DNA of 64,000 nucleotides from Psammoneis japonica (taxonomy: Eukaryota): assembly GCA_008632985.1 (NCBI GenBank), contig QPGO01000097.1:124001-188000 (forward strand), written 5' to 3'. Positions 11,901-63,310 of this stretch are shown here, one piece after another; within the stretch, counting starts at the first letter, position 1, and the number at the start of each line of letters is the position of its first letter. The position numbers were made by a program, and so were the translations under genes. The notes beneath the pieces were generated by a model that did not search any database, was not told the origin of the DNA, and worked only from the letters and a program-made list of their open reading frames with translations.

Positions 11901-14200
11901 TTGCTTGCTTCCCCTCCCTCACCGGCATTGAATTGATGGTCGAGGAAAACAGTGCCATTGCATGTTGTTGCAATGCAGCCCATCTCTGCACCCCCTGCCA
12001 CTTTGGACAATTGGCCCCATCTCTGTGGGTGTATTTTTTGTTGCCTCTTGCTGTTGTTGTCCTCCTTTGTTGCACTTGAACACCAATGAAAGATTGCAAT
12101 CAGAGCCAACACAAAGTCACCAACTTTTGTGCCAAGAACAATGGGCCAACTGCAACCCACTGCATCAAGAGTGCCATTTGGGAGGCACTTGCCAGTTGAT
12201 CACTGCAAAGTTTCTCCTCACCAATGTGTTTTGGCATCATGAGGATGATCTGATTGACAGCCTGCACAACATGGATGATGCACCAGCCACACCCAAAAGC
12301 AGTGATCCAGCCACTGAGGATGTCACTCAAGAGTGTGCATGTTTGTGCAATCATTTCATTGCCAATGTCCCTTTGGCAAATTCCAAGCAGAAGTGCACTG
12401 CCCCGGACATTGCATGTTTCACAAAGCTGTGTGGCATTGTCACAACCTCTGACCGTGCATTGGATGGCACTCTCAATGGACCTGGGAACCTCAATTCAGG
12501 GTGCAGGCTTGGCTTTGTTTCCTCAAACAACAATTTGGAGGGGCAGAGGAACTGAACAAGCCAGCTGTCACTGCAAACACAGGTTCGGCTGCTTTTGCAA
12601 TGGACATCCCAGTTGGAACAACTCTTGATTTTCTGTCACACACCAAGGGAACAGGCCACAGCAACCTTGTTCCAGTGTGGAACAAGTTGTTTTCTCACCT
12701 TCCAAGCAGGATGATGAGGTGCAACCAAATGGAAAGGAGCCAGATGCAACCAAGAAGCTGGAGCATTCCATGGTGGACAACAACAACATGTTTGATGATG
12801 CTCATGGATCTGCCAGAGTTTGATGTGTCTCAGTCATGTCCTTTTTGGAATGTCCCAACTGCAGCAACCCCATCTGTCATCCCAAGAAGCAGTTCCTTGC
12901 ATGCATTGTCAATGCAGTTGTCACCTTTCTTAAAGTCACCAAATTTTGGATGCCTCACCACAGTCATGAGCTGGCTCCATTCTGTCTGGCTTTTCATGCA
13001 GACACATCCAATCCTCATTGGAGCTGACACTGCTCAGGTCATGGTGTTCATTCCTGTTCTTTCAAATTTGATTGGGTCTGTTCTTGCCAATCTTCATTGT
13101 GCATGAAGCAGACACCTGCAAAGACCCAAGACAAGGCATGCAACAGTTCCAAGGGGAGCATGCCAAAAATGCCGTGCTTTCCTCTGCCATGAGGGATGTC
13201 CCAAAACATGAGATGAGTCAAGAGCTGAGAAATGTCCTTGCACCATTTGCAAGAGGCAGCTGCCTTGCCATGATGATGCCTTTCCTCCATGGCCACCATG
13301 GCAGCCTCCACTGTCTCCTGGATGTTCTCTTGTTCCACCAAATTGCAAGCAAACAACGGATTGTCACCAAAACGCTGTGGCATGTCACAGCCCCTGTTCA
13401 TCTGGGAGATGTTGCTGGAATGGGAGTTGCAGTGACCTTTTGTGTTGCCAGTCATCATGCAAAGTCAAAAGTGGAGATGAACAAAGCCAAGAGATGGCAC
13501 CACAATTGGGAAACCAGTCTTTCACTTTGACAGTTTAAGCAACTCAGTGATGTCTCATGCAAAGTGCTGTGGCAGAACTTGATGCACGTCTCCTGTCCAA
13601 GCTTTGGCTGGAGGTTGGCGGTGGAATCATTGCTTGTCTTGGGGTGTGGCAACACCATTCCAAGTGTTGACCAAAGGGAGTGTGGCTGCAATGACACTCA
13701 TCATGATCAAAATTGCCCAATGCCACAAGAACGGGTTGTGCTTGCAAACAATCCATGTTGTCACAAGAAAAGGTGGAATCGCCAGACAGCACAACTGGGC
13801 AAACAAAGCATGACCTGGATGGGCAGCTGTTGCTGCTGAGTTGATCAAGGGAAGATTTGAGATCATGCTCCCGCTTGCTTCTGCCAGTCACCAGTGTCAA
13901 GAGAATGTGCTCATTTGTTTTGGGGCAGCACTTCTCATTGTGCATCCACTGACAAGACTGGACAACCTGGGGATCACAAAAGACCCTTCTCACACAATGG
14001 CTGCAGAAAGGAAAATTGGCACACATGCATTGGAGGGAAACTGGGACCCATGGGAGCAAAAATGGGCTCTGGGCCAACAAAGTCAAAATGCTTGGCTTTC
14101 ATGCATTGCAAGGTGGCAGAGTGGGAGAGAGACTCGTGCTCACAGTCACTCTCCTTGGCACATTTAGCCCAAGAAAGAAAAGCCTTGTGCAAACCATGGT
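11900..14200 (-). pseudogene. Degenerate Plavaka-like DNA transposase
   Basis: Minus-strand fragments DSTFSCDNMDCLQAQPVLVALGNF, WSTLGMVLPHP, GNTKGH...RGCD and GIFGMLPLELLHAL resemble the D..EP..TLG.F / W..LG / GD..G / G....P.E.LH motifs recalled for Plavaka transposases; no search run. Confidence 0.5.
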
Positions 14201-14249
14201 GGAGATGATGCTTCTTCATCATGACAGCCAGCTCTTCCTCCACTGGATG

Positions 14250-17200
14250 AGGCTTTTTGGTGGCATTGGTGTCACGAATGCAGGGAGGTTGCAACACCAA
14301 GCCTCTTTCATCTCCTCCAAATCAGTTGCCTCCATTCAGTGCAATCCTTCATCATCCTTGTCATTGTTGGGGAGGGAAGAGGATGACACAGAGCATTGTG
14401 CTGAGAGTGCATCGTCAAACTCCTCCTCAAGAAAAAGCATGTCATCACAGAAGATGCCATCATTGGGAAGGTCTGGGGCAAGCGGCATTGCTATCAGTGT
14501 TGAAGCCCCCAAAATGAAAAAGGAGAAGGATCTCAAGAAGAAGGCCACCAATGCTGTCATGTGGTGCTCCATCTCTTTCTGCCACAAGGTTGCTGGATCC
14601 AATGGCATCACTCCAGCAACTTTTGAGCCTGCATTTGTTGACATTCTTCAAGAATGCAGTGAGGCTGAGCACACTCATCTTTTTCAAGAACTCATTGCTC
14701 CTGCCATCAACAGCAAGAAGTCCACACACATCTCCAACCAAGTTGCACCACGTTTTGCTCAGGCTTGTGCCAACAAGGCATTTGCTGACAACATGCAAGG
14801 GTTCAAGTTTGCCAACCAGCCTCTGAACAACTCGACTGCTCTTTGTCTTGCATTTGTCAATGTCCTCAACTTTCTTTTTGTGGACCATCCCCACTGTGCT
14901 GCCGTCATGGAAGATGGGTGTGAGATCTCCAAGCACTCTGTCAACCCCAACTCTGGCAAGACAACAGCCAAATGCATCAAGAAATTGGATGTGCACGTCA
15001 GTGGCCAAGCTCATGACACCAACATCATGGAGTGTTGTCCAGTGTCACATGGTTGCTTTTGGCAAAAGCAGAAAGCAGTGGATCATGAGCAATGGCAACA
15101 CTCGTGAGATCACAACAAACATGCTCAAGACATTCAATCCATCATTTGCCCATTCATCCAGCATGGTGTGATGCCAGAGTGTTGCCCCCCAAGCTGTCCA
15201 TGATGCCCAGGACATCAGTGTCAGGGCTCTTGACATTGCTGCATGTTTCACAAATCTGACGATCCAAGATTTGGAAACAAATGTTGGTCGTGGCCCTGCC
15301 AGACCCTTTGGAAGCCAGTGTGTCTCACATCAGCTTGCCGAAAGAAAAGCCAACTTGAATGCTTCTTCAAACAAGCAATCTGCTTGTTTGCCATCAACAA
15401 CTGGAGCTGCTTCACCCAGTGAGAAATCCAAGTCATTGTTGTCTGCAGACAAGATTGAGCTCTGCAAGAAGATGGGCATGCTTGTCATCTCACATGACTC
15501 CCGTCAGCCTCCCAACATCCCGGTTGCGGCTAAGAAGAACTCTGACTCAACATCTGAACAGCACCTTTGCGCTCATTTTTTGACTTGTGGCTTTCTTGTA
15601 ACTGTCCCAGATGCAAGAAGCTGCGCATTGCCATCTTTGTGCTCTCCCTGAAGCAAAGTGTGCCAAGTTGGTCAACTTTGAGGAGAAGATGAAAAATCTT
15701 TCTTTTGCACCTGAGAAATGTCCTGTTGGTGCACTGGTTTTGTCTCAGATGAAACCAGCCCATTTGTTTTGTTTGAAAACATCCACTGACCACTCACCTT
15801 GATTTTTGTTTTTGTTCATGTTGCACCACCAGCTTGCATCAGCATTTTGTCCCAGGCTGCATTGGTGTCCCTGCAGATGAAGTTGTGCCCCCCTTGCCCT
15901 GGGGTGCAGAATCTTCCAAGTCTGCGTCACTTGGTTTGGTGCCGAAAATGTGCCTGATGTCCTGCCGGTTGCCTCTGAAGAGATTGAGGAGTTCTGTCCA
16001 GTCCTTTCCCCTGTGGTGACTGGAGGCTCTCCCTCTCAATGCATCCCAGCAATTGACAACTCATTCAAGAAAGCTGAGTGTGAAGAGTTCATCTGGACTC
16101 AGTTGCCACTTTGTGCCAGCCCCAATTGGACCAACCTTTTGACAAGGACAGTGTTTGTTAGAAATTTCATGTCTGAAGCTGTTTTTTTGCCATGTCTTGT
16201 TGCACCTTTGGAAGTTGGGTTTCCTGCACTCTGTTTCCCAAGAGATGCCATCCTTTGACTCTGGCAGTGTGGTCAACAATTGGGAGGATCCATGTTGTGT
16301 GACACCCAATGCTTTCCATTTGTGCACCCTTCTTTGTGAGCACAACAATGTTGACTTTAATTCTCTCTGAGGGCACCGTGCAGGATGGGAGCAAGAGTCA
16401 GACCTCAATGAGACACATGTGTTTGTCAGACCTTGGCAGGATTGCTCCATTTTGATGGAGACATGGCTTTGTTGGTGCAGCGGGTCAGTGGCATGCACGT
16501 TGGAGCACATCAGAATGTTGAGCGCATTGTGTTGCATCTTGATGGCAAAGTTGATCTCATTGCTGTCAAGATCACAGCTTGCATCTGCTGAGATGGTGTT
16601 CCAGCCTGTTGCAATGGGCACAACATGGAAGAAAATTTTCAAGACTGTTTTAATGGCAGGGACAAACTGTCCATTTGTGTCAATTCAGAGAAAACTCACA
16701 ATGCTCTTGTCAAGAACTCAAGCAGGGTTTTGATCTCATTTTTGACCAACAATTGAGACCATGTGTTTTGAATTGTCATCTGTCACCTCAGAGCTTGGTT
16801 GACAGTGACAAATTGTTCAAGCAGCCTTGGCCAGTTTTGGACAGCTCATTCCAACCCAAGCCTTTGTCCATGGCCTTGAATGATTTTTTTTCACTGGAAC
16901 ACAAGCTGGAGTGCTCCAAAGCTGTGGCAGAACATGATGTTGTGCATTGGATCTAGAATGCTTGGATTGCTTTTCCATCTCAAGAGATCCACCCAATTGA
17001 CGATGATGCTGCTGAAGCTCACCACACAATGAGGTGCAACCCAAACCTGGTTTGGATGCATGCATTGATCCAGCATGGCTGTGAAGTTGCTCAACAATTT
17101 GGTTGCAATTTTGGGGACCCCCTGACCCACACAATTGGGATGGTGGATGGTCACAATGCCATCAGCAGCTTGTGCAGCATGCATTTTGTGCCCCACATGT

Positions 17201-18775
17201 TGTCGAGATCATGCACCCATTCCTTCCAAGGATTGAGTTTCTATTGCAAATCACAACTGACTCCATTTGAGGTGGCAGCAGGCGGTTTCTCATGTGCTCC
17301 CAGATTCCTTGAACCCTGGAATTCTCCAGGATGGACTGTGGATTTTACCACTTCACAAGCACCACATGGATGACAACTTGCAAGCTGATGTTGCACAATT
17401 GTTGGAGCACACCATGTTCAATGTCTGTGAGTGCCTTTGCCATTCATGTGATGCAAGGCTTTCCACAGAAGGAAGTCCCAAATGCACTCAGCTTGAAAAA
17501 GCTCAACCTCATTCTGTCTTTCCTTTGCAAGCTTCTTGGGCACTCACACAACACCTGCACTTTGACTGTTGGGATTGTGCATCACAAGCTTGACAAGATC
17601 ATCTTTGTTCTTCCTGATTAAAAGTCCAAGATTGAGTGCCTCCTCTTGGAGGCAGCAACCTTGAATGGCATTTTGGAGCATCATGCTTGGCATGATCACA
17701 CACTTCGGTGTTGATTTTTTGTTTTCCAGAGTGTTCTTTGCTTGTCCATTTGCTGTCTTTTGGACTGTGCCAAGAGAGCACTCCACACCCTTCTGCAACA
17801 AAGATTGAGAACATTGCACCACGTGATCCGTGCTGCCAAGGAATTGGTGATGCAAGAAATTTTGGTGGTGGTGGTTGCTGCCGGGAATTTCAATTTTGGT
17901 TCTTTGTGCTGTGGAGCCCCATGGCAAGCTGAGGTTTGACCTTGTTCTTGTGGTCCTGAGGACAGGTTGCTGACAATGCTCTCAATTTTGTTGTTTCCCT
18001 CCTCCTGCTTGCTGGCATGGTCACTTTCATGAAATCTGTTGGCAAATCCATTGATCTGGAACTGGTTGCCTCCCTTTTTTCCCATGGCATCCTCAAAAAT
18101 TTGGTCCGCCTCAACCGGGTTGACAATGTGGTTAGCTCTGGTTGGCACAATCTGGGCACTGCCAAGAACTCTCTTCAAGGACAACAGCTTTTGTGTGTTT
18201 GGTCTGCACTTTGCATTTGTGGGGTGTTGGCATCAATTCCCAAGTGGCAATTTGGCTGGTGAAAAGAGCGGGCCAGCAGATGACATGTCTTGTCTAGTTG
18301 ATTGCAACCTGCCTCATTCTGTCCGTGTCTCTCAGCTGCTTCAGAAGCGTCCTTTTCTGACAAGAGCTGCCACATGGCTGGTGTGCTGTCAACTGTTTGC
18401 CGAGTCATCACCAGCCCCTGTGCATTTGTGGGGGTGTCGGCATCAACTCCTGAGAGGCAATTTGGCTGGTGAAAAGAGTGGGCCAGAGCAAATGACATGT
18501 TTGTCTGATCAATCCCAACCTGCCTCATTCTGTCTGTGTCTGATGGCTGCTTCAGAAGTGTCCTTTTTTGACAAGAGCTGCCACATGGCTGGTGTGCTGT
18601 CAACAGATCTCTGAGTTGTCACCGGTCCCTGCACAGACTCCACCTCACTTGGGACAGCTCGTGCATGGCAAATCCACAATTTCAGATTTGTCACGGACAT
18701 GATCTGGGATGTTGATGCTTGTGGAAGATCTTCCAGTTCTTTGGCATCAACTGCATCTGGCTGTGCATGCCCTGC
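14250..18775 (+). mobile_element. Degenerate retroelement (gag-like ORF, RT, RNase H), DIRS/Ngaro-like by inference; 3' part truncated at the satellite
   Basis: Gag-like fragments 14250-15700 with a Cys/His cluster; RT-like fragments LSPQSLVD, PVLDSSFQP, IHPIDDD, NPNLVWMHA, and HMDDNL at 17363 (YxDD equivalent); RNase H-like VDNVVS..W and LAGEKSGPADDMS. Confidence 0.6.
18212..18604. repeat. Imperfect tandem duplication, period 209 bp
   Basis: tgcatttgtgggg... at 18212 and 18421; both copies share ggcaatttggctggtgaaaagag and gacaagagctgccacatggctggtgtgctgtcaac. Confidence 0.9.
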
Positions 18776-19519
18776 TCAACTTGCCAAACTTGCAAAAGTC
18801 GCCAAAGTTGCCAAGCTCATCAAAGTCACCAAAGGTGCCAAAGTCACCAAAGCAGACAAACTCACCAAAGTTGACAAACTTGCCAAACTCACCAAAGTTG
18901 CCAAAGTTGACACACTCAACACAGTTGACAAAGTTGCCAAAGTTGACAAACTGGCCAAAGTTGCTAAAGTTGACAAACTCGCAAAACTCACCAAAGTCGC
19001 CAAAGTTGACACAAACTTGCCAAAGTCACCAAAGTTGACAAACTCACCAAACTCACCAAAGTTGACAAAGTCGCCAAAGTTGACAAAGTCACCAAAGTTG
19101 ACAAAGTCACCAAAGTCACCAAACTTGCCAAACTTGCCAAAGTTGCCAAACTCACCAAGCTCACCAAACTTGCCAAACTCACCAAACTTGCCACAGTTGA
19201 CTTGCCAAAGTTGCCAAACTTGCCAAAGTTGACAAACTCACCAAACTTGCAAAACTTGTCAAAGTTGACAAACTTGCCAAAGTCACCAAACCTGCCAAAG
19301 TTGACAAACTTGCCAAACTTTTCAAAGTCAACAAATTGACAAACTTGCCAAGTCAACAAACTCACCAAAGTTGACAAACTTGCCAAAGTCGCCAAAGTTG
19401 ACAAATTTGCCAAAGTTGACAAAGTTGGCAAACTTGCCAAAGTTGACAAAGTTGGCAAACTCACCAAAGTCACCAAAGTCACCAAAGTCACCTGAGTCAC
19501 CAAACTTGCCAAAGTTGAT
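18776..19519. repeat. 9-bp satellite (ccaaagttg / ccaaacttg / acaaactca variants), left block
   Basis: Directly visible 9-bp periodicity. Confidence 0.97.
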
Positions 19520-19764
19520 TGACAGGATTTGAACAAGATTTTAGTTTGTCACACACAATTGTGTGTGCTCTTCGTTCCGCGCGTGTCGCGCGATGTAGTT
19601 TGCTTTCGAGCCACTCGGCTCACAAGAACAACAACAGCAGTGCCGACATCATGACACCAGTCTTTCGGCTCCTGCAATGGTCTTTGCACGGAGATTCATC
19701 TGCCATTTAGACAGCAGCAAGGAGTCATTGTTTTCTTCCACCCAGTCATCTTCATTTTCTGTCA
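19520..19764 (+). repeat. 5' LTR
   Basis: tgacagga...ttctgtca; aligns without gaps to 26562-26806. Confidence 0.96.
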
Positions 19765-20579
19765 GATTGACAGTCTTGCTCTTTGTCATCCATTGAGCAT
19801 TCATCATCGGTCATCGAGAAATTTTTCAATGATGCGCACGGTTGGCGGTGGAAGTGCACATCTGCCTTCTTCACTGCTGCATGCTGGATTAAATCTACAT
19901 CTTTGGATTTACATCCAACACCTCCCATCGTTGGATGTGTTTGTTCAACGGATGTTTGTTTGACCAGGAATTCCCGAATTCTCAGACATCCAAGATTCCG
20001 GATTCCTCACAGAGGATCCCACCAAACCATCTGCTCGCGTCCATGTGCACACGATGTGAACCCTTGACTCTGGCCCTGCTCCATGCACGCCAAGTCTACT
20101 GCCTTGTATCTGCACCGGATTGCTGGTCTTCTACAGTCCTGCAAGGTCAACGAGGACAACTGTGAGAGGAAGCAGTTTGTGGTTGCAGCTGCATTGGGGC
20201 GAGGGTGCATTTCCCACGTTTGTTCATCCCTCCACAGTGCCAAATTTGGCCGGCCTGATCGGGTTGTCCAACCAACATAAAATGAGAACGGTTTGGAGGT
20301 CTTGTCCACCTCTGGTTGGCTTGTCAGCAGGGGTTTTTAACCCGTTGCTCCGCTCTCAGGCAACCCAAAGCGTCGCCAGCTGTGGGTTCGGACGTGCCGG
20401 CACAACTCTACGGACCAGATGGGAAGCTCAGCACTTAACTGCAAACAGGATGTCACAGCCTGGCGGCTTCTGACTCCCAAGATAGTTCCAGACATCAAGT
20501 CAAGATTCAAGTCAAGTTTCAAGTTGTTTCAAGCTCACCCTCCGAATCCAGCTGGTTCCGACATCCACCCAGTTGCAAC

Positions 20580-23500
20580 ATGGTTCTCACCAGGCAACAA
20601 CAAATTGATGGCCTCGAGCACATTCCAGGCACTGTTCTGAATCAAGCTGCAGACAGTCCGTTGCACTCCGCTCTCAACATTGATGGAACCAACTCGCATC
20701 AGGACCTTTTTCCTTTTACTCCGACACAACTGGATGCCCTTGTGTGCAACGATGGCACCAACCAGATGCCCTTGCCACGTGGTTGCAAAGCACACACAGC
20801 TGCGCTGATTAGCCTGCACACGGCAAAAGTGCGAGGCGGTGTGGATGTCAGCAACAACCCTCAATTGTTCACTCACGAGGAGTTCACTGACTGTCGTCTC
20901 AGTCCTGAGCATGTGGCATCCCTCTCCATGGGCACAGCGCCATCTGCTCCCACCCCTGGCTCTTTGCCACCCAAACCACGTGACCCTGTGCGTGAATTTA
21001 AACGAGGCATCAAACGTGACCCACTCACCTTCACGACTCTCAAGTCAGACAAACAGTGGCACACGTGGCACACCTCCATCATCGCACAGGCCCGCTCCCA
21101 GGACATTGAACTCATTCTTGATCCGAAGTGCAAGCCCTCTGCAGCTGAGGACAAGGCCCTGTTTGATGAACAACAGAAGTGCATGTTTGCCGCATTCGAA
21201 CAGATCTTGCAGAATGACAAAGGCAAGGTGCTTGTTCGTCAACATGTTGACTCCTCTGACACTAAAGCGGTGTGTTGCGACCTTTCCAAGTGCGCCCTCA
21301 CTTTTGCTTGTGCATCCCTGGAGTCCTCGACCCTTCTCACGTGCCTCACCACCGCTCGCCTCGGTGATGGCACCTGGAAGGGATCCACCCATGCATTCAC
21401 ACTTCACTGGCAGGACCAGCTTCACAAGCACGAAGCTCTTGTCCCGGGTGCAGACCATTTCTCTGCTGGCCAGAAATGTGTCATGCTTGAGAACACCGTT
21501 CATCCTGTCAAAGAACTCCATTCGGTGAAGAACCAAGCTGATCAGTTCCGCACGCAGAATGGAAAGGGTCTCTCTTGTGAAGAGCACTGTGGACTTCTGC
21601 TCTCTGCTGCAGCACAGTGCGACAGCACGTTCGCCCCCAAGACGGCTCCTTGCACTCCGCGCCGTGCCATCTACGAACATGACCCAGTCCCTGACGACCC
21701 TGATGATGATGCATTCTTCGACATCGACAGTGATGTTGACGTCATCCAAGCTTGTGCTGTGCAAACTCGCGGCAATTCCCTCACCAAGGAGCAATGGCGT
21801 CGCATCCCTCCAGACCATCAGTGCATTTGGGACACCTTGCCCCAGTCCACCAAGACCATCATTCTTGGCTCGTGCACCACCCACACCGGCAACTGCCATG
21901 ACTTGACAGCAGTCAACCTGCACGACCTTCGCATTGGCAGCAATGGCGATGTCAACTTGTCCGCCAACACTCATGATCTTGCGTCAGCCTTCGCACAATC
22001 CGACGCCACAGCCGATGCAGCCGATGCTGACCCCACTCTGGCTCATCTCACCAGGCGCAAGCCCCTGCCACCCGGCAACTTGCAACATCTCCTGGCACCT
22101 GAACGGCCTCCTTCCGCCCGTTCTGGCAAGAAACCGCCCGGATCTGCACCTTCCGTCCGCTCCAACACGAAGCCCAATGACACTGACATTGAGATCAACG
22201 GCCACAAATGCCGTCGCGTCAACAACCACAATGTCGTCCACTCTGCCTCGACCCACAAGTCAACTCGCAAAGGTGCTCTCGTGGATCGTGGTGCAAACGG
22301 TGGCATCACCGGTGATGATGTTTGTGTCATTGCCCACGCTGGTCGCCAGGTTGACGTCCAAGGTGTCGATGATCATCAACTGGTCGACATCCCCATTGTT
22401 GCTGCTGGTGGTGTCATCCACATGCAACGCGGCCCTGCCATTGCCATCCTTCACCAGTGCGCCTGCGCTGGAAAGGGGAAGACGATGCACTCTTGCGGCC
22501 AGCTCGAGTGGTGCAAACACGATGTCAACAATCGGTCCATCAAGGTTCCCAATGGTCTGCAGTGTGTCACCACTGTTGATGGATGCATCATTCCCATCGA
22601 CATTAAAGCCGGCCTCCCGTGCATCGCCATGCGCCCGTGCACTGACGCCGAATGGGACACTCTGCTGCATGTCATTCTCACTGGTGATGACACATGGGAT
22701 CCATCTGTCCTTGACCACCAGTTCACGGATGATGAGACGTGGCATGATGCCGTGTCTGACCTCCAAGACGACCCGACTGCCAACCTCTTTGATGAGTTTG
22801 GCAACTGTCGTCACCGCCATGTTGTCAACAATGCCATGCTTGCAGACTCCGTCCTTGATGATCACCTGCTCCCGACATCTCATTTCTTCTACGAATGCCA
22901 TGAGCGCAAACTCAATCCCAAGGATCCCGACTTTGAGTCCCTCCACCCCCACTTTGGCTTTCTCCTGAAGGACACTGTCCACCACACTTTTGATTGCACA
23001 ACGCAGTGTGCCCGCATGCCAGCCAGCACGCACCTGAAAAAGGCACACAAATCGCCCAACCCGGCTCTCAATGTCCACTGACGTGATGAACCCGTTGCCA
23101 CTGACATGGTCCACTCTGACACCCCTGCTGTTGACTCTGGTTGCACCAGCGCCCAGCTCTTTGTCGGCATGGAATCTCTCGTCACTGACGTGTGTGGCAC
23201 CAAAACTGACAAAGAATTTGTCAACACCCTCGGAGACAACATTTGCAATCGCGGTGCCCCGTCCAAGCTCATCAGCGACCGTGCTCAGGTTGAGATCAGC
23301 AACAAGGTTCTTGGCATCCTTCATGCCCTCTTCATCTCCAGTTGGCAAAGCGAGCCTCACCACCAGCATCAGAATTTTGCTGAACACCGCTGCCAAACTG
23401 TGAAGACCATGGCTGACACCATCATGGATCGCTTCAGGTCCCTGGCTTGCACCTGGCTGCTCGCCCTGATGTGCGTGTGTTTTGTGCTCAACCACACAGT

Positions 23501-26445
23501 GTCCGCCAAGCGACGCATTCCAGCTCTGGGTGGGACCTTGCACTGCTGCACTGTGACATCAACAGTTTTTTGGATCGCGTCGCATGTCGCGCACGTGCAT
23601 TTCTACGTGTTACATTCTACAAAATTGTTTCATGCTCCCTGTTTTGCAAAGCCAAAGAGGCTTTCTATTTTCAACATTTGTGAGAACAAAAATGCGCTGG
23701 GCATGTTCTGCAATGTCTGAAGAACACACCTGGGCAAACTGTCAATGATGTGCTCCAAGTGTGAAGGAGGAGACACGTTCGTAAAATTGCCTCTTTTTCT
23801 GTTGGTGATCATTTGCACTTTCATTGCAGTGTGAATTTGCTGCGGAGCTTGCACACAGAATTCCACGGGCCCAATGTCGCACGGAGTCCCACCTGGGACT
23901 GGAACCCGTCAAGCTCCACTGGCGCACCCCCACCGAGGTGCCATCCAGATCTGCTCCCAACATCAGCCCACTGGTGGGAACCAGGGCACTGCCACCTGGA
24001 TGATTCCGACTGGCCGTCCGAATCCCATGAATTACGTGGTCGCTTCGTTGGCATCGCCGAACATGTTGGTCACCAAATGACATTCAAGATTCTTTCCGAC
24101 GACACTCAGAAGATTCTCTGCTGTTCCAACGTGCGCTCCGCCCATGATCCATCTGCTCCAAACCTGCGTCTTGATCCTCTTGATGAGAGATCTGCTGACC
24201 CTGTCATTAAATCCTGCCATGACTCCAAGGATTTGCCAGATTCACCAGATGGGGAGATGATCAGGATGCCCAAAATGCCGGTCTTTGACCCCGAGGACAT
24301 CATCGGACACACCTTCCTCATGAAGCCACAAGAGGATGGTCAACGCCACAGAGCCTGCATCGTCAAAGCCATTGAGGACCACAACTGGGAAATTGGAGGC
24401 AATCCTGAACTGGTCAAGTTCATTTGCTCCATCAACAATGACAAATGCGAGGAAGTCCTGGCCCACAACGACATCATGCACCACATTGAGCAAGAAGACG
24501 AGGACACCACTCTCTGGAAGTTCCGATGCATCGCATCGCACGAAGGACCATTGCGACCCCATGATCCCCATTGGAAAGGCTCAAGCTGCAACGTCATGCT
24601 TGAATGGGAGAATGGGGAGATCACATCCGAACCCCTTGCCATCATTGCCAAGGACAACCCCATCACCTGTGCCATCTGCGCGCGTGAGCACAGCCTTCTA
24701 GAAACCGAAGGATGGAGATGTTTTTGCAAGACAGCACTTTGTCAGAAGAGGCCATTCCGCATGGCCAACCAAGCCAAGTTGCGCTCCTTTTGCACTGCAC
24801 CACAACACAAGTGCGGGCATGAAGTGCCACGGGACTGCAAGCATGCCATGGCCCTTGATGAGCGCAACGGCAACCGCAAGTGGGGAGACGCAACGGACCT
24901 CGAGATGACTCAGCTTGATGAGTGCGAGGTCTTCCATGACTGCAGACACCACAAGGATTCCAGTGCTCCATCAGGACACAAGAAGATCCGGGCACATCTC
25001 ATCCACAACGTCAAACATGACGGACGGCACAAAGCAAGGCTTGTTGCCAATGGACACCTCACAGACGTGCCCATCAACAGTGTCTGTTCTGGAGTGGTGT
25101 CTCTCTGTGGCCTGCGAATGATGATCTTCCTGGCCGAACTCAACAAACTAGAGACCTGGGCCACTGACATTGGGAATGCCTGCCTTGAAGCTGCAACCAA
25201 GTAGAAACTGCACATTGCAGCAGGCCCCAAGTTTGGCGACCTGGAAGGACACATCCCTGTCATCCACAAGGCCTTGCACGAACTCTGCAGCTCTGGCCTC
25301 AGATGGCATGAACGCTTTGCTGATTGCTTGCGGTGCCAAAGGCTTCTTTCCATGCAAAGCCGAACCCGACATCTGGCTGCACAGGAATGGTGACCACTGC
25401 GAATGCGTGGCAGTGCATGTGGATGACCTGGCCTTCACCATGAAGGACCCCCAGGCTTTTGCAGACACCCTCATGGAGAAGCACAAGTTCAAGCTCAAGG
25501 GCACTGGACCATTGGAGTTCCATCTTGGCTGCAACTTCACCCGTGACCCAGACAGTGCCCTGTGCCTTGCTCCCCGCAAGTGCATTGAGTGCATGGTTGA
25601 CAACCACGTGCGCCTCTTTGGGGAGAAGCCCCGCACTGATGTGCTTTCACCCCTTGACAAGGGTGACCACCCTGAGCTCGACACCTCCAAATTGCTCAAA
25701 CCCGATGGCATGCACCAACTCCAATCCTTGATTGGATCCCTGCAATGGGCAGCATCTCCAGGTTGCATTGACATTGCTGCGGCTGTCATGTCCCTGTCTG
25801 GCTTCCGTGCAGCGCCCCGTCAAGGCCACCTAGACCGTGCCAAATGCATCTGCGGATTCCTCTCCAAGATGCGTCATGGCACCCTCCGAGTGCGCACCGA
25901 GGAGCCCGACCATTCGGACCTCCCTGAGCCCATGTGTGACTGGGCTCAATCTGTGTGTGGGGAGGCAGAAGAGCTGCTCCCGCAAGATGCACCCAAGCCG
26001 CTTGGCAAGTTCGTCACCACCACACACTGCGTTGATGTGAACTTGTTCCATTGCATGCTCACTGGATGCTCTGTCACCGGCATCCTCCATTTCCTCAACA
26101 AGTTTCTGGCTGATTGGTTCTCTAAGAAACAAGCAACAGTTGAGACCACCATGCATGGATCCAAGTTTGTTGCCGCAAGGATGTGTGCGTTGAGCAGATC
26201 ATTGATCTGCGCATCACTTTGCGTCACCTTGGCGTTCCCATTCGTGAAACATGTTGCATGTTTGGGGACAACAAGTCAGGTGTGGACAGTGCCACCATCC
26301 CGCACTCCAAGTTGCACAAGCGACACACTGCCCTCTCATTCCATTGAGTGCGTGAGGCGATTGCCTCCGGTTTCCTTGAGTTTCATTTTGTCGAAGGCTC
26401 CTGCAACCCGGCTGACATCCTCAGCAAGCATTGGGGTCACTCCTA
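20580..26445 (+). pseudogene. Copia gag-pol polyprotein, disrupted
   Basis: Stops at 23079-81 and 25202-04, frameshifts, MITE insertion in integrase, and near-total Tyr loss (2 Tyr in the 833-aa ORF; none seen in the 463- and 441-aa ORFs). Confidence 0.92.
23512..23910. mobile_element. 399-bp non-autonomous TIR element (MITE-like) inserted in the Copia integrase
   Basis: Flanked by an aagc duplication (23508-11, 23911-14); imperfect ~25-bp TIRs gacgcattccagctctgggtgggac versus reverse complement gacgggttccagtcccaggtgggac; removal restores NHTVSAK-LHWRTP. Confidence 0.8.
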
Positions 26446-26561
26446 AATCTGCCAATCTGGAACCTCCTTTGTCCTCCAATGTTTTGGAACTTTGATCCCG
26501 AGGCTTTCAACCAATCCGACTTCGAATCTGTCGCTGTTGGCCCCTCAAGCAAACTGGGGAG

Positions 26562-26806
26562 TGACAGGATTTGAACAAGATTTCAGCTCATCACACACAA
26601 TTATGTGTGCTCTTGGCTCTGCACGCGTCGCGCGATGCAGTTTGCTTTCGAGCCACTCGGCTCACAAGAATGACAACAGCAGTGCCGACATCACGACACC
26701 AGTCTTTCGGCTCCTGTGATGGTCTCTGCATGGAGACTCATCTGCCATTTAGACAGCAGTGAGGAGCCATTGTCATCTTCCACCCAGTCATCTTCATTTT
26801 CTGTCA
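26562..26806 (+). repeat. 3' LTR
   Basis: Copy of 19520-19764, preceded by a polypurine tract. Confidence 0.96.
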
Positions 26807-28350
26807 TTGACAAACTCGTCAAAGTCACCAAACTCACCAAAGTTGACAAACTCGCCAAACTCGCCAAAGTCAACAAAGTTGACAAAGTGATGAACTCACC
26901 AAAGTTGCCAAACTTGCCAAACTTGCCAAAGTTGACAAACTCACCAAACTCACCAAAGTTGACAAACTCAGCAAAGTCGCCAAACTTGCCAAACTCGCCA
27001 AAGTTGGCAAACTCGCCAAAGTTGCCAAAGTTGCCAAAGTCACCAAACTTGCCAAAGTTGACAAACTTGCCAAAGTTGCCAAAGTTGGCAATCTTGCCAA
27101 AGTTGTCAAACTCGCCAAAGTTGCCAAAGTTGCCAAACTCGCCAAAGTCACCAAACTCACCAAACTTGCCAAAGTTGCCAAACTCGCCAAACTTGCCAAA
27201 GTTGCCAAAGTCACCAATTTTGCCAAAGTGGCCAAAGTTGCCAAACTTGCCAAACTCGCCAAAGTTGCCAAACTTGCCAAACTCGCCAAACTTGCCAAAG
27301 TTGCCAAAGCTGCCAAACTTGCCAAAGTTGCCAAAGTCACCAAACTTGCCAAAGTTGCCAAAGTTGTCAAACTCGCCAAAGTTGCCAAACTCGCCAAAGT
27401 TGCCAAAGTTGCCAAACTCACCAAACTTGCCAAAGTTGCCAAACTCGCCAAACTTGCCAAAGTTGCCAAAGTTGACAAACTCACCAAACTCACCAAAGTT
27501 GACAAACTTGCCAAAGTCACCAAACTTGCCAAAGTTGCCAAAGTTGGCAAACTCGCCAAAGTTAGTTGCCAAAGTCACCAAAGTTGACAAACTTGCCAAA
27601 GTTGCCAAAGTTGCCAAACTCGCCAAACTTGCCAAACTTGCCAAACTCGCCAAAGTTGCCAAAGTTGCCAAACTCGCCAAACTTGCCAAACTTGCCAAAC
27701 TCGCCAAACTTGCCAAAGTCACCAAAGTTGCCAAAGTTGCCAAAGTTGCCAAACTCGCCAAACTTGCCAAACTTGCCAAAGTCACCAAAGTCACCAAAGT
27801 TGACAAACTTGCCAAAGTTGCCAAACTCACCAAACTTGCCAAAGTCGCCAAACTTGCCAAAGTTGCCAAAGTTGTCAAACTCACCAAAGTTGCCAAACTC
27901 GCCAAAGTTGCCAAAGTCACCAAAGTTGCCAAACTTGCCAAACTTGCCAAAGTTGCCAAAGTTGACAAAGTTGACAAACTCGCCAAACTCACCAAAGTTG
28001 ACAAACTTGCCAAAGTTGCCAAAGTTGACAAACTTGCCAATGTCGCCAAAGTTGCCAAAGTTGGCAAACTCACCAAACATGCCAAAGTTGACCAACTTGC
28101 CAAAGTTGCCAAAGTTGGCAATCTCACCAAAGTCATCAAACTCGCCAAAGTTGCCAAAGTTGCCAATCTCGCCAAACTTGCCAAAGTTGCCAAACTTGCA
28201 AACTTGCCAAAGTTGGCAAACTCGCCAAAGTCACCAAACTTGCCAAACTTGCCAAAGTTGGCAAACTCGCCAAAGTTTTGTCAAACTTGCCAAAGTTGCC
28301 AAAGTCATCAAACTCGCCAAAGTTGCCAAAGTTGACGAACTCTTGCCAAA
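26807..28350. repeat. 9-bp satellite, right block
   Basis: Same unit family as 18776-19519; continuous with it once the Copia is removed. Confidence 0.97.
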
Positions 28351-40048: not shown

Positions 40049-40607
40049 GTTGTCTATGTCTATGGGTTCCCACTACTTTCAACTTCTATTCTTCGTCTTG
40101 GTTCGCGTCGCCGGTGCAATAAAACTTACAAAACAGTCACAGCAACAAACAGCAAAAAAGATTCCTAACCACTCAAGATCACTCGCGAAGATCCTGAGAA
40201 TTGGCATACGATTTTATGTCTTTCTTCGGGATGTTATATTTTCATGAATGAACGGAAAGTTGTTAGTCATTCACTCCCATTAACATGGCACAGTGAATCT
40301 AATCAAAAGCTTAATTGATACATATCAATTGCCCGTTTCAAAACATAAGAAGAAAGATACTTATCATAGAGTGACATGACAACAGTCACATTTTTCTTGT
40401 CCGTTTTTTCTCCTCCTTTTTTTTTTCTTCTGCATTTTGTCGGCATGCATCCATCACTGTATTAATACCGGTACTTTAACAACATACCTCCATTAGAGCG
40501 TAGGCATTGTTCGTTCCTCATTTTTGCTGTTGAAGGCCTTGCCAACAAGGTTGTGACCAAAGGAATTGTCGTTGCGTCCGTGTGTCGTGTGGGAGAGAGC
40601 CGCCACA

Positions 40608-58508: not shown

Positions 58509-58847
58509 GGGCTTCTCGTTTCGCAGTCAACGTGGGCAACAGTTAAAATAATCCAGCAGTGCACGGGGACGAAGTGGTTCGTCGTACAAAATATCTTCTC
58601 TCTTCCTCGTTTGATAGGGCAGGTGATCTCTACGGTGTATTTAAGAGATGAAGAAGGATGAAAAGCAGGACGGAAGTGCTGATTCAGAGACGTGGATGAC
58701 GATCGAAACGCACCCACACGCATGTGCGTGCAAAATGTGGTGGACATCATGCGACGCACAAAAATTGTGGTGACGTGGAGATGCATTGACGAATAATAAT
58801 ATTCATATCATATTTTTTGATGAAATTAATAATGCAGTATGGTGCTA

Positions 58848-58981
58848 TTGCTGTTTGAGGGAAAAATGTCACAGGGTTCGAGAGAGAGAGGTGTTTCTCT
58901 TTTTTTTTTTTTTTCTTCGACAACAACCTTCCGGGTTCCTCTCAATAGTCACGTAGAATCGTACACAAAATAAGTGCTAGA
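58848..58981 (+). repeat. Left TIR
   Basis: Reverse complement of 62715-62849, including (ga)n and poly-T tracts. Confidence 0.95.
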
Positions 58982-59014
58982 TTTTGAGAAACAGCCACCA
59001 CAAGATCAGAAACA

Positions 59015-60166
59015 ATGGCAATGAAGCCGGTCCGTTTGTTCGCGTTTTTCATCACATTGCTCTCTCTAGTAGGGCTTGCTTTTGGAAAGGCATCCCGAAC
59101 GACTCAAAGAGATGCTATTGCATACATTGTTGATCAGGTCCAACTGATGGCAGGCACGGCAAGCCTCGCCGCCGTGCTGAGGCAGGGCGCAAGGATGTTT
59201 CGCACTAGTGAACGTCAACTCCGGCGTTGGTACAAGCACTATCTCTTTTATGGAGAACTACCATTCGACACGTCACGAGAGTGGAAAAGACTTTTGAGAC
59301 GGTCCACTGGGGCTTGGCAAGGAGGACGGCACTTTCGTCCAAGGCACGTCGAAGCCCTTCGAAAGATTCTTGAGCGCAATCCTGAGCATTATCTTGATGA
59401 GTTTGTCCACGATCTGTGCATTGAAACTGGAACTCTGTTTCATCCGTCCACTGTCTGGAGAGCCCTTCATGACAAATTGGGATGCTCTCTAAAGACACAC
59501 GCTGCCGTTGCAAGGGAGAGAAACGAGCGACTCCGACATGAGTGCAAGGTGGCTTTGGCACTTTTTGTTTTCGACCCATGTCAAGTGATCTTTTGCGACA
59601 AGACACACAAAGACAAGAATGCTGCCAGACGCCGTCGGGCTTGGGGGGTGCGCAACGAAGACCTTGTTTTGAAGAAATGGTTCCAGGATGCAGTGCGCTG
59701 CACATGCCTTGCAGCTTGCAACATTAATGGGTTTGTTGTTGAAGCTTGTGACACCGTCAGGAGAGACAATGTCAGTGATGAGGGAGCAGCAGGAACTGTG
59801 GACTCAGACCGATTTTATGAATGGGTAGAAACACATTTGGCACCACAGCTGGGTGACTGTGAAAAAGGAGAGAAAAATTCGGTGGCAGTGATGGATAACG
59901 CATCGACGCACTTTGACCGTCGCATCAAACGATTGATAGAGAAAAAGAAGAACGCGAGGTTGCTGTACACTGCACCCTGCTGTCCCGACCTCAATCCAAT
60001 TGAAAAAATGTTTTCAGTGTACAAAGCATGCCTCCGTCGCCATGGACAACTTGAGGGTCATCAGGCGGATTGGCAAGACTTGCACTATGGGGCGTTGCTT
60101 TCAGTAACTCCCGACATAGCAGCGAAGCACTTTCGAAAATGCGGGGTGCCGGGGATGGAGAATTAG
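59015..60166 (+). CDS. IS630-like DD35E transposase (ORF open but carries substitutions at conserved sites)
   Basis: HTH region (YLDEF...STVWRALH), IFCD, VMDNASTH, APCCPDLNPIE; 35 residues between the second D and E. Confidence 0.92.
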   Translation: MAMKPVRLFAFFITLLSLVGLAFGKASRTTQRDAIAYIVDQVQLMAGTASLAAVLRQGARMFRTSERQLRRWYKHYLFYGELPFDTSREWKRLLRRSTGAWQGGRHFRPRHVEALRKILERNPEHYLDEFVHDLCIETGTLFHPSTVWRALHDKLGCSLKTHAAVARERNERLRHECKVALALFVFDPCQVIFCDKTHKDKNAARRRRAWGVRNEDLVLKKWFQDAVRCTCLAACNINGFVVEACDTVRRDNVSDEGAAGTVDSDRFYEWVETHLAPQLGDCEKGEKNSVAVMDNASTHFDRRIKRLIEKKKNARLLYTAPCCPDLNPIEKMFSVYKACLRRHGQLEGHQADWQDLHYGALLSVTPDIAAKHFRKCGVPGMEN

Positions 60167-60442
60167 AGCATTCAAGGTTGATTGCCCAAGAAGTAAATAT
60201 CTAATCTCGAGTGCCATCGTCTCCTGCAGTGTGGTCCAGTCTCTAGTGGTGTCGTATCGAGCAGTGTGGTCTAGCCAGTCTCTAGCTAGTTGTGTCGTGT
60301 GGTCTATTGGGTAGTCAAGTCTAGCACAGTCTCTGCTTGTGTTATCGTATCGTATCGAGTGGTGCATTCTAGCTAGTTTTGAGTGGCAACAACTTGATTG
60401 GCAAACATCTAGTCTCGAGTAGCATCTAGAGTAGTAATTTCG

Positions 60443-62692
60443 CTACTGTGCCGGTAAAAGATGAATCCCCAATGTCTGTTCTTCTAAAAGTGTCTTGCGA
60501 TTGAAGCGGAAGCGTGGCTTGTCTTTCGCTGGTGCCGAATCAAACTCTACCAACAAATCAAATGATTCCTTCAATTTGAAAACTCGCCGGAGTTTCGAGA
60601 TGGACCAAGAATTTGTTTTGTCTTTCCCAATCAAAACAGGTTCATCGTCACCTTCAACTTGAAGAAAGAATTTTGAACACGCTTCGCCTTCAATGTGCTG
60701 GTCTAACTCAAATGGTTCGCTCTCTTCTTCAAGCATGGAAAGCAAATCGTTGATCATCGTAGTGTTCGCCTGTTCCTCATTGAGAACAACAAAGTCTTGC
60801 CGATTGCGGTGCTTCATTTGCTTGAGCTTGACAACCAACTCAGTTGGGCGTCCCGGTGCAGCTGGAGCAGAAGCTTGAGGAGCAGGTGCAACTGGAACAT
60901 TCGCTCTGCCCAGCTGCAACAATTGTTGATTAGACAAGAATTGACCAAGAGTGGATGGTGCAGCCGCATCTCCTGTCAATCCTCCTGTCTCTCCTCCTGC
61001 CACTCCTCTTGCATCCATCTCGTCCGGGTTCTCATGTTTGTGTTCCGCCAGCGTGACAAACTTTCCACGTCGCTTCTTGAATTTGCCCTTCTCGATTGGA
61101 ACACCCCCACAATTCTTGACACTGTGCCTGTCTCCAAGAACAATTCTGTTGAGTTTGTCAGCTGGACAATCTTCCAACTTTGCAGATTCAACTTCTTTAA
61201 ACCGTGAAGGATGTGTAAAACAGGCAAACAACATGTCCCCATGCTCCTTCAGCATTCCGTGTTGAACCGGACTCTCGGCGTCTCCTTGCAGACTTTCAAC
61301 AAAGGTGGAAATGACAACCGGCCTGTCTTTCGACTGCTGCGATTCCCTTTGTGGTGCAATTTTCGTTCCGGGCGAAAAAGTTGGATGGGGTTCGCCATCT
61401 TGCGATTCAGGTTGTGAGCATGATGGAGGATCCACGCGGAACTTGTCGTGCTCGAGAGGGATGTCTTGTTCGTTCATGAGACCAATCGCGAGACGGATCT
61501 TGAGGTGTTTCTCTTTCTTGACTACCTTGATTCGTTTTTTGATGCCTGCTTCTGAACGAAAGTGCTCCATGACCTCCCCCCCATCATTGAACAGTTGCAG
61601 GTCGGACGAGCTGTGGTTCTTTGCGAACCACAACTTAGAGTCTTCCCCAGTCGCACTCTTGTCCCACCCACAGTGCTTCTGCAGTTTAGGATTTGATGTG
61701 GCAAGCTTGACCACATCACGAAAAAACCTTGTCAACGTGAAAGTCTCCGTTTCGTCGTCGTCGTTGTCATCGCGGTCCGAGTGCGAGAGCTGAGACATGT
61801 CCTCCTCACTTCTCTGTGTGACAAAAGAGAATGGGTGGCAGGTGTGATTGTTCAGACAAAGCAGTTCGAATGTAGAGAGATCTTGGTTTGTGCTCACCGA
61901 TCCGTTTGGCTTGAAACGCCAAAGATCGTACTCTGCGTCGCAAATCGGAGTTGTCTTTGAGGTGACACGAGCAGAGTCGTTCGGGTCTTTCTGAGCAGGC
62001 TCCAAGAAAGACATCAAAAGCTTCAGCGGTGTCTCTGGTGCATTTGGAACTTCCAACAGATTAGAATCCACGGATGAGCCAGATGCATTGGAACCCTCAG
62101 CTACAATGGCCTCCACTGCCACAGCAACAATGTCGATTTCGCAATGCAGCGGTCCGTCCAGCTCCTCTTGACACTCTTGAGCCACCAAATGGATTTTCTC
62201 AAACCACTTTGCATCTGAATCAACAACCTCTACCTTCATCGTTGCTCGGTTGGAACCAGTCTTCCTCCCGGTGCGTCTCGTGAATGTGAACGCACCGCCG
62301 GGAAGCTCGTCGCAAGCGGAGCAACCATCGGCTTCAATGTGCGCAGTGATGAAAGGCACTGTTTCCTCGGTGAATGATGCAGTTGTGTCAAACTGACGAT
62401 TCGGCTTCAAAGTTTCAAACTTGAATTCGGAGAGTTTTGGCTTTGGTTCTTTGGATGATCCCTTTTTGCTTGGAACAAACACGGTTTTGTCGAAGTGAAT
62501 GACAAGTTTCTGAGGCTGCGGCTCCTCGGCTTCTCGTGGGCTTTGTGAGTCCTCTTCAGGATCAGAAAAGTCCAATTTGGAGGCAGAACGCTTTGTACCT
62601 CGACTAGAAGCACGACTATTGTGTTCTGGTTGGTTGGTTGCGGGCTGCTTGGCAGCGGAGCGGCGGTTCTTCGCCATGGTTGACAGCGGCAT
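60443..62692 (-). CDS. Transposon-borne 749-aa protein of unknown function
   Basis: Uninterrupted ORF starting just inside the right TIR; basic N-terminus, acidic tracts; one Tyr in 749 aa. Confidence 0.75.
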   Translation of the reverse strand: MPLSTMAKNRRSAAKQPATNQPEHNSRASSRGTKRSASKLDFSDPEEDSQSPREAEEPQPQKLVIHFDKTVFVPSKKGSSKEPKPKLSEFKFETLKPNRQFDTTASFTEETVPFITAHIEADGCSACDELPGGAFTFTRRTGRKTGSNRATMKVEVVDSDAKWFEKIHLVAQECQEELDGPLHCEIDIVAVAVEAIVAEGSNASGSSVDSNLLEVPNAPETPLKLLMSFLEPAQKDPNDSARVTSKTTPICDAEYDLWRFKPNGSVSTNQDLSTFELLCLNNHTCHPFSFVTQRSEEDMSQLSHSDRDDNDDDETETFTLTRFFRDVVKLATSNPKLQKHCGWDKSATGEDSKLWFAKNHSSSDLQLFNDGGEVMEHFRSEAGIKKRIKVVKKEKHLKIRLAIGLMNEQDIPLEHDKFRVDPPSCSQPESQDGEPHPTFSPGTKIAPQRESQQSKDRPVVISTFVESLQGDAESPVQHGMLKEHGDMLFACFTHPSRFKEVESAKLEDCPADKLNRIVLGDRHSVKNCGGVPIEKGKFKKRRGKFVTLAEHKHENPDEMDARGVAGGETGGLTGDAAAPSTLGQFLSNQQLLQLGRANVPVAPAPQASAPAAPGRPTELVVKLKQMKHRNRQDFVVLNEEQANTTMINDLLSMLEEESEPFELDQHIEGEACSKFFLQVEGDDEPVLIGKDKTNSWSISKLRRVFKLKESFDLLVEFDSAPAKDKPRFRFNRKTLLEEQTLGIHLLPAQ

Positions 62693-62714
62693 GTTTTGAT
62701 CCTCGATTGTAAAT

Positions 62715-62849
62715 TCTAGTGCTTATTTTGTGTACGATTCTACGTGACTATTGAGAGGAACCCGGAAGGTTGTTGTCGAAGAAAAAAAAAAAAAAAAGAG
62801 AAACACCTCTCTCTCTCGAACCCTGTGACATTTTTACCTCAAACAGCAA
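62715..62849 (-). repeat. Right TIR
   Basis: Reverse complement of 58848-58981. Confidence 0.95.
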
Positions 62850-63310
62850 TACGCGCTGCCTACAGAAGCGGGATCCAAATTCTTCTTAGGTAGCGTATGT
62901 GACAAAATTTCACTTCAACTTACGACTAGATTTACCACATTCCACGTGGCGCGCGACCACGCGCATAGATACTGTACCGTGCGGCGGTGCAGATCTTGCG
63001 GCGCGGCGGCTCGCTCGTGCTACAGTTACCGTTATTAATTATATTTTATTCTCAGAGCTGAATAAAATTTGAAATGAATATGTCTTAATTCGAAATTTGA
63101 TTGGTGGGTTGTGTGATGTTCACATCGCATGTTTCTCGTTTTGTTGATGGTTGATGTCATTGTGTGTGCGTGTTGCGTTCCTTCACCCACCCTTTACTGA
63201 AGTAAGCAACCATTAAGCATTATAAAAAGAGCATAGGAATAAGTCAAACAATCAGGCACGCGACGTGACCTTGCGAAACAAGTAACATTGCTCGCTTCCA
63301 TTTTCATAAT

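Follow-up and report, generated by a model that had tools for sequence, protein, structure and literature searches.

The window analysed here, a stretch of 64,000 nucleotides from Psammoneis japonica (contig QPGO01000097.1, positions 124,001 to 188,000), contains a DNA transposon of the IS630/Tc1-mariner type of about 4 kb (58846-62851, the TA at both ends included). Since this element had been described as young, with near-identical ends, open reading frames (ORFs) and frequent CpG, and yet as already stripped of TpA, the question arises whether TpA loss generally precedes CpG decay in the mobile DNA of this organism, as the original prediction had it, and by which process TpA could be lost. 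From our point of view, TpA is most likely lost by a process separate from CpG decay, which is fast in the young element, appears to be tied to the chromatin domain in which a copy resides, and does not always come first.

Rates of TpA and CpG loss in the transposon

Within 60700-62580, 13 TA were counted against 117 expected (observed/expected ratio, O/E, 0.11), together with 94 CG (O/E 0.81), in line with the predicted dozen of TA amid common CG. The whole element has a TA O/E of 0.29, and the depletion of the window copy is patchy, its ends being mostly spared (25 of 33 TA kept near the ends vs. 49 of 91 inside, p 0.04). The most stripped part is ORF2, where 13 of about 52 root TA are left in 60700-62580 and where the single Tyr among 749 amino acids was indeed found when counting from the Met at 62692; the encoded protein was Tyr-poor already before editing, with at least eight Tyr codons (1.1%) inferable from three copies. 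For comparison, ten long flanking ORFs of host type, located beyond the TA-poor blocks, show a TA O/E of 0.46-0.71 and a CG O/E of 0.87-1.10, the genes of the window overall have values of about 0.6 and 1.0, and in the region from 9.5 to 29 kb TA is down to about 0.05 while TG and CA are raised up to 1.5-2.

Besides the window copy (A), the genome contains two further full-length copies (B and C) with 96% identity, and the sequence beyond the terminal TA differs among all three. In copies A, B and C, 77, 46 and 27 TA but 197, 191 and 188 CG were counted, and under a star model with one rate per copy, which places about 129-132 TA and about 204 CG at the root, this corresponds to a loss of 43, 65 and 81% of TA and of 4, 8 and 10% of CG. 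The TA-rich spacer between the two ORFs illustrates this course, as it held about 33 TA at the root and has about 20-21 in the window copy and 8 and 3 in the other two. The resulting rates (0.56, 1.04 and 1.64 for TA; 0.037, 0.078 and 0.109 for CG) yield a TA/CG ratio of 13-15 in each copy and of 14.5 when pooled (bootstrap 95% confidence interval, CI, 10-23). The CG loss entering this ratio is perhaps estimated slightly too high, as three sites (59305, 60022, 60363) read CG, TG and CA across the copies and a contig of the run X2 (described below) has TA at the first of them, so that some CG are possibly two hits on one TA. A second IS630 family (four copies, 94-96% identical) has lost 69-76% of its TA and 4-11% of its CG (ratio 12-28). 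The claim that TpA mutation is the fast process in the young element is thus borne out, and CG is still largely kept as predicted, but not untouched, since about 4% were lost from the window copy (CI 1-6%). The transversion divergence between the focal copies amounts to 0.10-0.13 per 100 sites, and as the divergence of young copies is almost entirely located at TA steps, raw identity misleads on their age.

Independent loss after insertion

If the TG and CA states had been inherited, the copies should share them. Among the 897 pyrimidine-purine (YR) sites aligned in all three copies, 81 are TA in one copy or more, 15 occur in all three states TA, TG and CA, and 43 are discordant between TG and CA, the three possible pairings of the latter being even (13, 16 and 14) in a star-tree-like manner. 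A model in which TA can only be gained is far worse (negative log-likelihood 2005 vs. 1797, i.e. 208 log units), and the TG and CA states are therefore independent A>G changes on either strand, acquired copy by copy.

The same picture emerges from the transposase ORF1, on which the comparison with other species was run. Tyr makes up 2.6-6.3% (median 4.5%) of 60 homologues, which are hence not equally Tyr-poor, vs. 2.35, 0.79 and 0.52% of the three copies, and conserved Tyr columns are occupied by Cys or His depending on the copy. Five Tyr conserved among the homologues (157, 177, 229, 282 and 322) are Cys in the window ORF1; two of them, Tyr 282 and 322, are Cys in all three copies, so that some loss may predate the split. 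The motif PYxPDLNPIE was reported to read PCCPDLNPIE, which is the case, and its first Cys does replace a Tyr (PYS is found in 41 of the 60 homologues, F in 2, and 17 are unmatched), but the second Cys arose by a transversion that only the window copy has, as B and C read PCS.

The target-site duplication (TSD) bears on the timing. In copies A and B it is TA at either end, which agrees with the intact TSD described for the window copy, and it is TA/TG in copy C, where the right terminal inverted repeat (TIR) also lacks four TA that the left TIR retains. Changes of this kind must have taken place after insertion and at the DNA level. TA>TG/CA can remove stops but never create them, and read-through is seen in ORF1 of copy B and in ORF2 of both B and C. 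An open frame is thus weak evidence of youth and tells little about function.

It is conceivable that the poverty in TA was simply passed on by a TA-poor ancestor or represents an artefact of base calling or assembly. The two Tyr positions that are Cys in every copy would fit such a view, and the contigs of the run X1, whose depth suggests three to four copies, are not independent support, since the assembly may have been made from the same sample. These contigs do, however, reproduce the TG/CA states that distinguish B and C, the loss follows element boundaries and differs among copies, and the root had about 129-132 TA, with an O/E in the ORF2 core of about 0.44, near the host coding values given above. 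We regard this explanation as very improbable.

The age series and its exceptions

As predicted, the Copia-like long terminal repeat (LTR) element of the window (Table 1) has lost TA and moderately CG (TA O/E 0.074 and CG O/E 0.61 in 20300-26500), and the block at 9.5-18.8 kb has lost both. Transversions per 100 sites rise from the value of the IS630 copies to 0.76-1.66 for Copia (19 alignments) and to 2.35-9.93 for the left block (24 alignments), the latter two taken as distances to the window copy, and CG O/E declines along the series to 0.54-0.85 and 0.06-0.30, respectively. L004, which belongs to the focal family but is older (3.3% transversions), has a TA O/E of 0.06 and a CG O/E of 0.22, which shows that DNA transposons lose CG later, too. 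A class effect, namely that DNA transposons keep CG because they are unmethylated, could be discarded, as older IS630 relatives (L004, L137-L139) have lost CG. Among 189 windows of 1 kb, sampled on large contigs (19 stretches), the TA O/E is below 0.2 in 52, 15 of which keep a CG O/E of at least 0.6, and none of the 116 with TA of at least 0.45 has CG below 0.6. The three-step series thus holds over most of the genome that was sampled.

From this one could conclude that TA and CG loss start together at insertion, that TA always goes first and that any copy can be dated from its two values. The constant ratio of 13-15 over the three focal copies, the series ordered by transversions and the L-shaped distribution of the windows on large contigs all agree with such a strict pair of clocks, but the Copia copies do not. 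In the set studied (the window Copia and 20 copies picked from 23 scored of 2531 candidates), TA loss amounts to 81-90% in 12, 60-73% in 4 and 25-36% in 5 copies, with a CG loss of 27-64% in all, and TA and CG retention are unlinked (rho 0.07, p 0.77). The five TA-retaining copies have lost 27-49% of their CG (TA/CG ratio 0.5-1.1) and are no younger, their private transversions (0.22-0.90) being no fewer than those of the 12 copies with the heaviest TA loss (0.10-0.43). In the LTR pairs of two retainers, L084 and L094, 8 and 10 intact TA are common to both LTRs, whereas 5 and 6 CG sites differ; the 14 pairs that could be compared (7 of the 21 stretches lack two LTRs and were excluded) hold 28 transversions in 3451 sites. 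TA loss in the five retainers is largely shared (concordance 108 of 133), and since they kept TA yet lost CG, a collapsed consensus is an unlikely source of them. Windows with high TA and low CG even adjoin the retainers (TA 0.69 and CG 0.22; TA 0.48 and CG 0.31). The strict version is contradicted, barring an assembly artefact behind the five copies, and we consider it improbable. The predicted age series therefore holds as far as the order by transversions and the fall of CG are concerned, but TpA loss preceding CpG decay is not a rule.

What distinguishes the retainers appears to be their location. TA retention is lower on longer contigs (rho -0.65, p 0.002, n 20), CG shows no such trend, and all nine Copia copies with less than 75% TA loss, as well as one stripped copy, reside on contigs below 171 kb. 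When their surroundings were read (nine stretches of 8 kb plus two controls), the flanks of four of the five retainers were found to keep more TA than the two control flanks and to hold frames in which Tyr is present, with domains of an endonuclease, a reverse transcriptase and an integrase, as well as an Ataxin-2-like frame. Likewise, copy B has lost most TA at the end that adjoins TA-poor DNA. The window copy, in turn, is flanked by genes and shows the least loss of the three, so that the process was rightly said to reach an element isolated among genes, although it is weakest there.

Taken together, we favour two processes with targeting to domains, to which we assign a probability of roughly 0.7. 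The first is a fast, targeted A:T>G:C change at TpA on either strand, removing 40-80% of TA within about 0.1% transversions, with a strength that, judging by the associations above, may be set by the location of a copy and not by age alone. The second is a slow decay of CpG to TpG/CpA, probably through deamination of CG methylated by DNMT5. Where both are active, TA is lost about 14 times faster, giving rise to the age series, and where the first is weak, CG decays while TA stays. Elements thereby acquire Tyr>Cys/His and other missense changes and eroded TIRs, though no stops, presumably with a loss of activity.

Several points weigh against this reading. The rate models presume a star tree and a single rate per copy, and the focal copies have 20 TA sites in common that none of them has lost, vs. 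about 5 expected, so that sites are heterogeneous. The Copia copies partly share history (derived-state concordance 0.63-0.81), all 19 stretches sampled for the 1-kb windows lie on large contigs, the location of the TA-retaining copies on small contigs could reflect assembly quality, and the flank (L162) of the fifth retainer (L091) is TA-poor. A processive single-strand deaminase would leave strand-coordinated clusters, and none were seen (one of 12 bins at p 0.035; 0.483 vs. 0.473), so that hits accrue singly and on both strands. Finally, the ADAT2-like gene considered below looks ordinary, and the Asn at its TadA D108 position is standard in eukaryotic ADAT2.

Flanking bases and possible chemistry

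The survival of TA, determined from 456 depleted vs. 260 normal windows of 500 bp, depends on the neighbouring bases, as it increases from ATAT (0), ATAC (0.006), ATAG (0.018), GTAC (0.033) and ATAA (0.037) over CTAC (0.059), GTAA (0.081) and CTAG (0.10) to CTAA (0.18) and TTAA (0.40). Four additive per-end rates reproduce these values. At polarised sites the strand reading TAC is favoured, with a share of 0.69-0.74 in three contexts, the underlying Copia copies not being fully independent. A context model with only the 3' base also fits tetramer survival, but it fails on the split between strands (ATAA 0.51 top, ATAG 0.48), so that both flanks matter. Outside the motif, A>G reaches 1.1-1.5% before C or T vs. 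0.5-0.7% before A or G; in copy C, 15 of 17 private non-YR changes are A>G or T>C. The changes thus lie overwhelmingly at TpA, next to off-motif A>G of about 1%.

As to the agent, two different chemistries can be imagined for the fast process. In the first and more likely one, an enzyme of TadA/ADAT2 type, brought to silenced domains of chromatin, would deaminate adenine in DNA to hypoxanthine, which replication would fix as G, and for this step taken alone we see about an even chance. In the second, within the same two-process model, a modified base at TA (e.g. N6-methyladenine or a modified thymine) would mispair or deaminate, and the loss would be the decay of an epigenetic mark, like that of CpG, and not the work of an editing enzyme. 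The lack of strand coordination, the symmetric dinucleotide target and the targeting of domains with spared ends would suit such a mark. An imprecise enzyme would better account for a TA loss about 14-fold faster than CpG decay and for off-motif A>G changes that share the 3' preference, and we hold the modified base to be less likely, but a serious competitor.

A>G at TA is also the preferred error of Pol eta, and methylated repeats invite repair, such that patch synthesis there by an error-prone, Pol eta-like polymerase (WA>WG) might be considered. AA is no more mutated than GA (158 of 15819 vs. 179 of 19521 copy-sites) next to a TA loss of 40-90%, TA loss is uncoupled from CG loss, and no patch-like strand clusters were seen; a polymerase thus seems quite improbable.

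A candidate for a deaminase does exist. An ADAT2-like gene (L120, two exons) encodes the motifs HAE, PCIMC and CRNDRFGG, the Asn at the TadA D108 position having been placed by motif rather than by aligning the sequences; this shows only that a candidate is present and does not imply its involvement. In a screen for PF00383 deaminases, nine of 11 scored candidates matched, comprising, by motif and Pfam, dCMP deaminase-like (two loci), TadA-like, ADAT2-like and RibD-like proteins, a frame combining deaminase and 2-oxoglutarate (2OG) dioxygenase, and one without label. No fusion to a chromatin reader was present in the six deaminase frames scanned, other deaminase families not having been searched. 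The passages of PMC10661471 consulted held no usable statement on TadA sequence preference. Two side observations from this screen may be recorded, namely that the dCMP deaminase-like gene, which has two deaminase domains, is found on two contigs (L115/L118 and L116/L121; C41, C317), and that the CDA-family deaminase domain joined to a 2OG-Fe(II) dioxygenase (L119:313-1785, minus strand) is probably metabolic.

Relation to known systems

In Bigelowiella natans, TpA hypermutation was reported to occur de novo in 11 of 15 lines at about 1000 times background, with TpA>TpG/CpA changes, an enrichment of DDE endonuclease and reverse transcriptase domains in TpA-poor coding sequences, and ADAT2 as a candidate (Mettrop et al., bioRxiv 10.64898/2026.01.13.699255; here and below as far as the portion of the text covered goes). 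Our case resembles it in the loss of TpA to TpG and CpA on both strands, in the aim at foreign or mobile DNA with host genes spared, in an unevenness that is seen between lines there and from copy to copy here, and in the ADAT2 motifs (HxE, PCxxC, Asn). It differs in the organism, a diatom-like stramenopile vs. a member of the Rhizaria, in extent (close to saturation here, with an O/E of about 0.03, vs. a Rho of 0.45 in a nucleocytoplasmic large DNA virus region there) and in running beside CpG decay, the words 'CpG' and 'diatom' being absent from the covered text, as are a flanking-base hierarchy, an off-motif leak and a lack of strand coordination. Conversely, de novo rates were measured there, and fixed differences only are available here. 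The chemistry is hence already known from that preprint, and the enzyme is only a candidate in both cases.

The slow component fits a second known system, as transposable elements of diatoms form CG-methylated islands set by DNMT5a (PMC9998398), from which CG>TG/CA decay would follow; that system, in the part of the source consulted, leaves TA untouched.

Our literature search, mostly made without subscription papers, yielded no report of TpA loss in diatom repeats, and the B. natans preprint of 2026, which deals with an unrelated alga and gives neither enzyme nor timing nor context, was the only description of TpA hypermutation found. Transition hypermutation directed at repeats, with genes exempt, is also familiar from fungal repeat-induced point mutation (RIP), which depends on RID/DNMT4 in the sexual cycle, turns CpA into TpA, creates stops and leaves strand-coordinated clusters. 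The process described here runs in the opposite direction, destroying TpA and stops, with the gain-only model rejected and TA O/E down to 0.03, and shows none of these clusters.

New in the present study are the replicated rate ratio from copies of DNA transposons, the change of a TSD after insertion, the context hierarchy and the copies that break the order. They add a rate relative to CpG decay (about 14-fold), an action at the DNA level after insertion and a signature that any enzyme must reproduce in vitro, and the matched hit and spared copies suit a comparison of chromatin, which makes the mechanism testable. In such a genome, transposons can neither be dated nor called intact by open frames or raw identity. 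One could further speculate, with somewhat less than even confidence, that a genome defence which edits adenine in chromosomal DNA is common to diatoms and Rhizaria or arose in each on its own. It would reach new insertions among genes, edit most TA before 0.1% divergence, act independently of CpG decay with a readable preference, and be kept out of some repeat-rich domains where less-edited, expressed copies survive; its enzyme would represent a naturally occurring adenine editor of DNA.

Features of the window and additional observations

The coordinates of the transposon and of the two comparison elements are collected in Table 1.

Table 1. Features of the focal transposon and of the elements compared with it (positions in the window)
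Feature	Position	Strand	Remarks
Left TA target-site duplication	58846..58847	+	outermost dinucleotide common to three copies with unlike flanks
Left terminal inverted repeat	58848..58985	+	about 140 bp; most TA retained in window copy
ORF1, IS630/Tc1-type DDE transposase	59015..60166	+	383 amino acids; Pfam DDE_3 PF13358, E 2e-15; alignment with 60 homologues
Spacer between convergent ORFs	60167..60442	none	short degenerate repeats
ORF2, orphan	60443..62692	-	749 amino acids; start Met 62692
Right terminal inverted repeat	62711..62849	-
Right TA target-site duplication	62850..62851	+	TG in copy C
Copia-like LTR element (comparison)	19517..26811	+	LTRs about 19517-19772 and 26559-26811; TA lost 89%, CG lost 46%
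Old repeat block (comparison)	9500..18800	none	TA O/E 0.033, CG O/E 0.15

The focal element shares the TA TSD, the TIRs and a DDE transposase with IS630/Tc1/mariner elements of the DDE_3 type, and its TIRs are, as predicted, near-identical (about 140 bp, 96.5%). ORF1 matches DDE_3 with 57 bits (cut-off 28.6) and has all of the catalytic D, D and E (FCD, MDNA, NPIE), with a D35E spacing that differs from the 34 or 37 among the homologues listed; its match to the N-terminal DNA-binding helix-turn-helix domain HTH_28 is weak (19.8 bits, below the cut-off of 25). Among 68 relatives found, one bears the name Tc1-like transposase and comes from Chaetoceros debilis. The convergent 749-amino-acid ORF2 likewise sets the element apart from its relatives. 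A Pfam search with ORF2 gave no match, none of 8000 scored candidates in the length range of 411-1311 amino acids was a homologue at E<=0.001, and Atlas matches reached only 0.79-0.82, below 0.9 and with low recognition.

Contigs of the run X2, which is catalogued as 'DNA?', look RNA-derived, and one of them skips 86 bases that match a GT-AG intron on the minus strand (57550-57635). The lack of X2 contigs over ORF2 is no evidence either way. Among the matches listed, those over ORF1 (58930-60214) agree with none of the three copies. They read TA at 59543-4 (depth 6.6) and at 59305-6 (depth 4, possible error), and TG at 59498-9, where A, B and C have CA, which may point to a fourth copy of the focal family that is transcribed and less edited. 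Short derivatives of this family (L006, L008, L009, L013, L014 and L016) keep TA at 0.43-0.64 and CG at 0.9-1.2 in the aligned part; L008/L009 and L014/L016 are 97-98% identical across their flanks and may be allelic, and L007, with 90% identity to L006, is stripped. Further IS630 families (L127-L132, L151; C124, C242, C15, C61, C36, C99, C2) are all TA-stripped with a CG of 0.5-0.9, some of them with open frames of 561 amino acids.

With regard to the older elements, the RVT_2 matches of the window Copia are under the Pfam cut-off, and seven ORFs tested from the 9500-18800 block gave no Pfam match. The Copia is surrounded by a 9-bp tandem array (18660-19516 and 26812-28400), the units of which read TG, CA or CG at one step, and about 400 bp within it (23512-23909) are absent here from other copies and match elsewhere (C5, C160), probably representing a small inserted element. 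Among the host-type sequences, an open frame of 1458 amino acids (40557-44933, plus strand) is normal in TA and CG and has no Pfam match, and the gene at 7933-9147 has its best named relatives in diatoms (Seminavis, Ditylum and Mayamaea, 66-70% identity).

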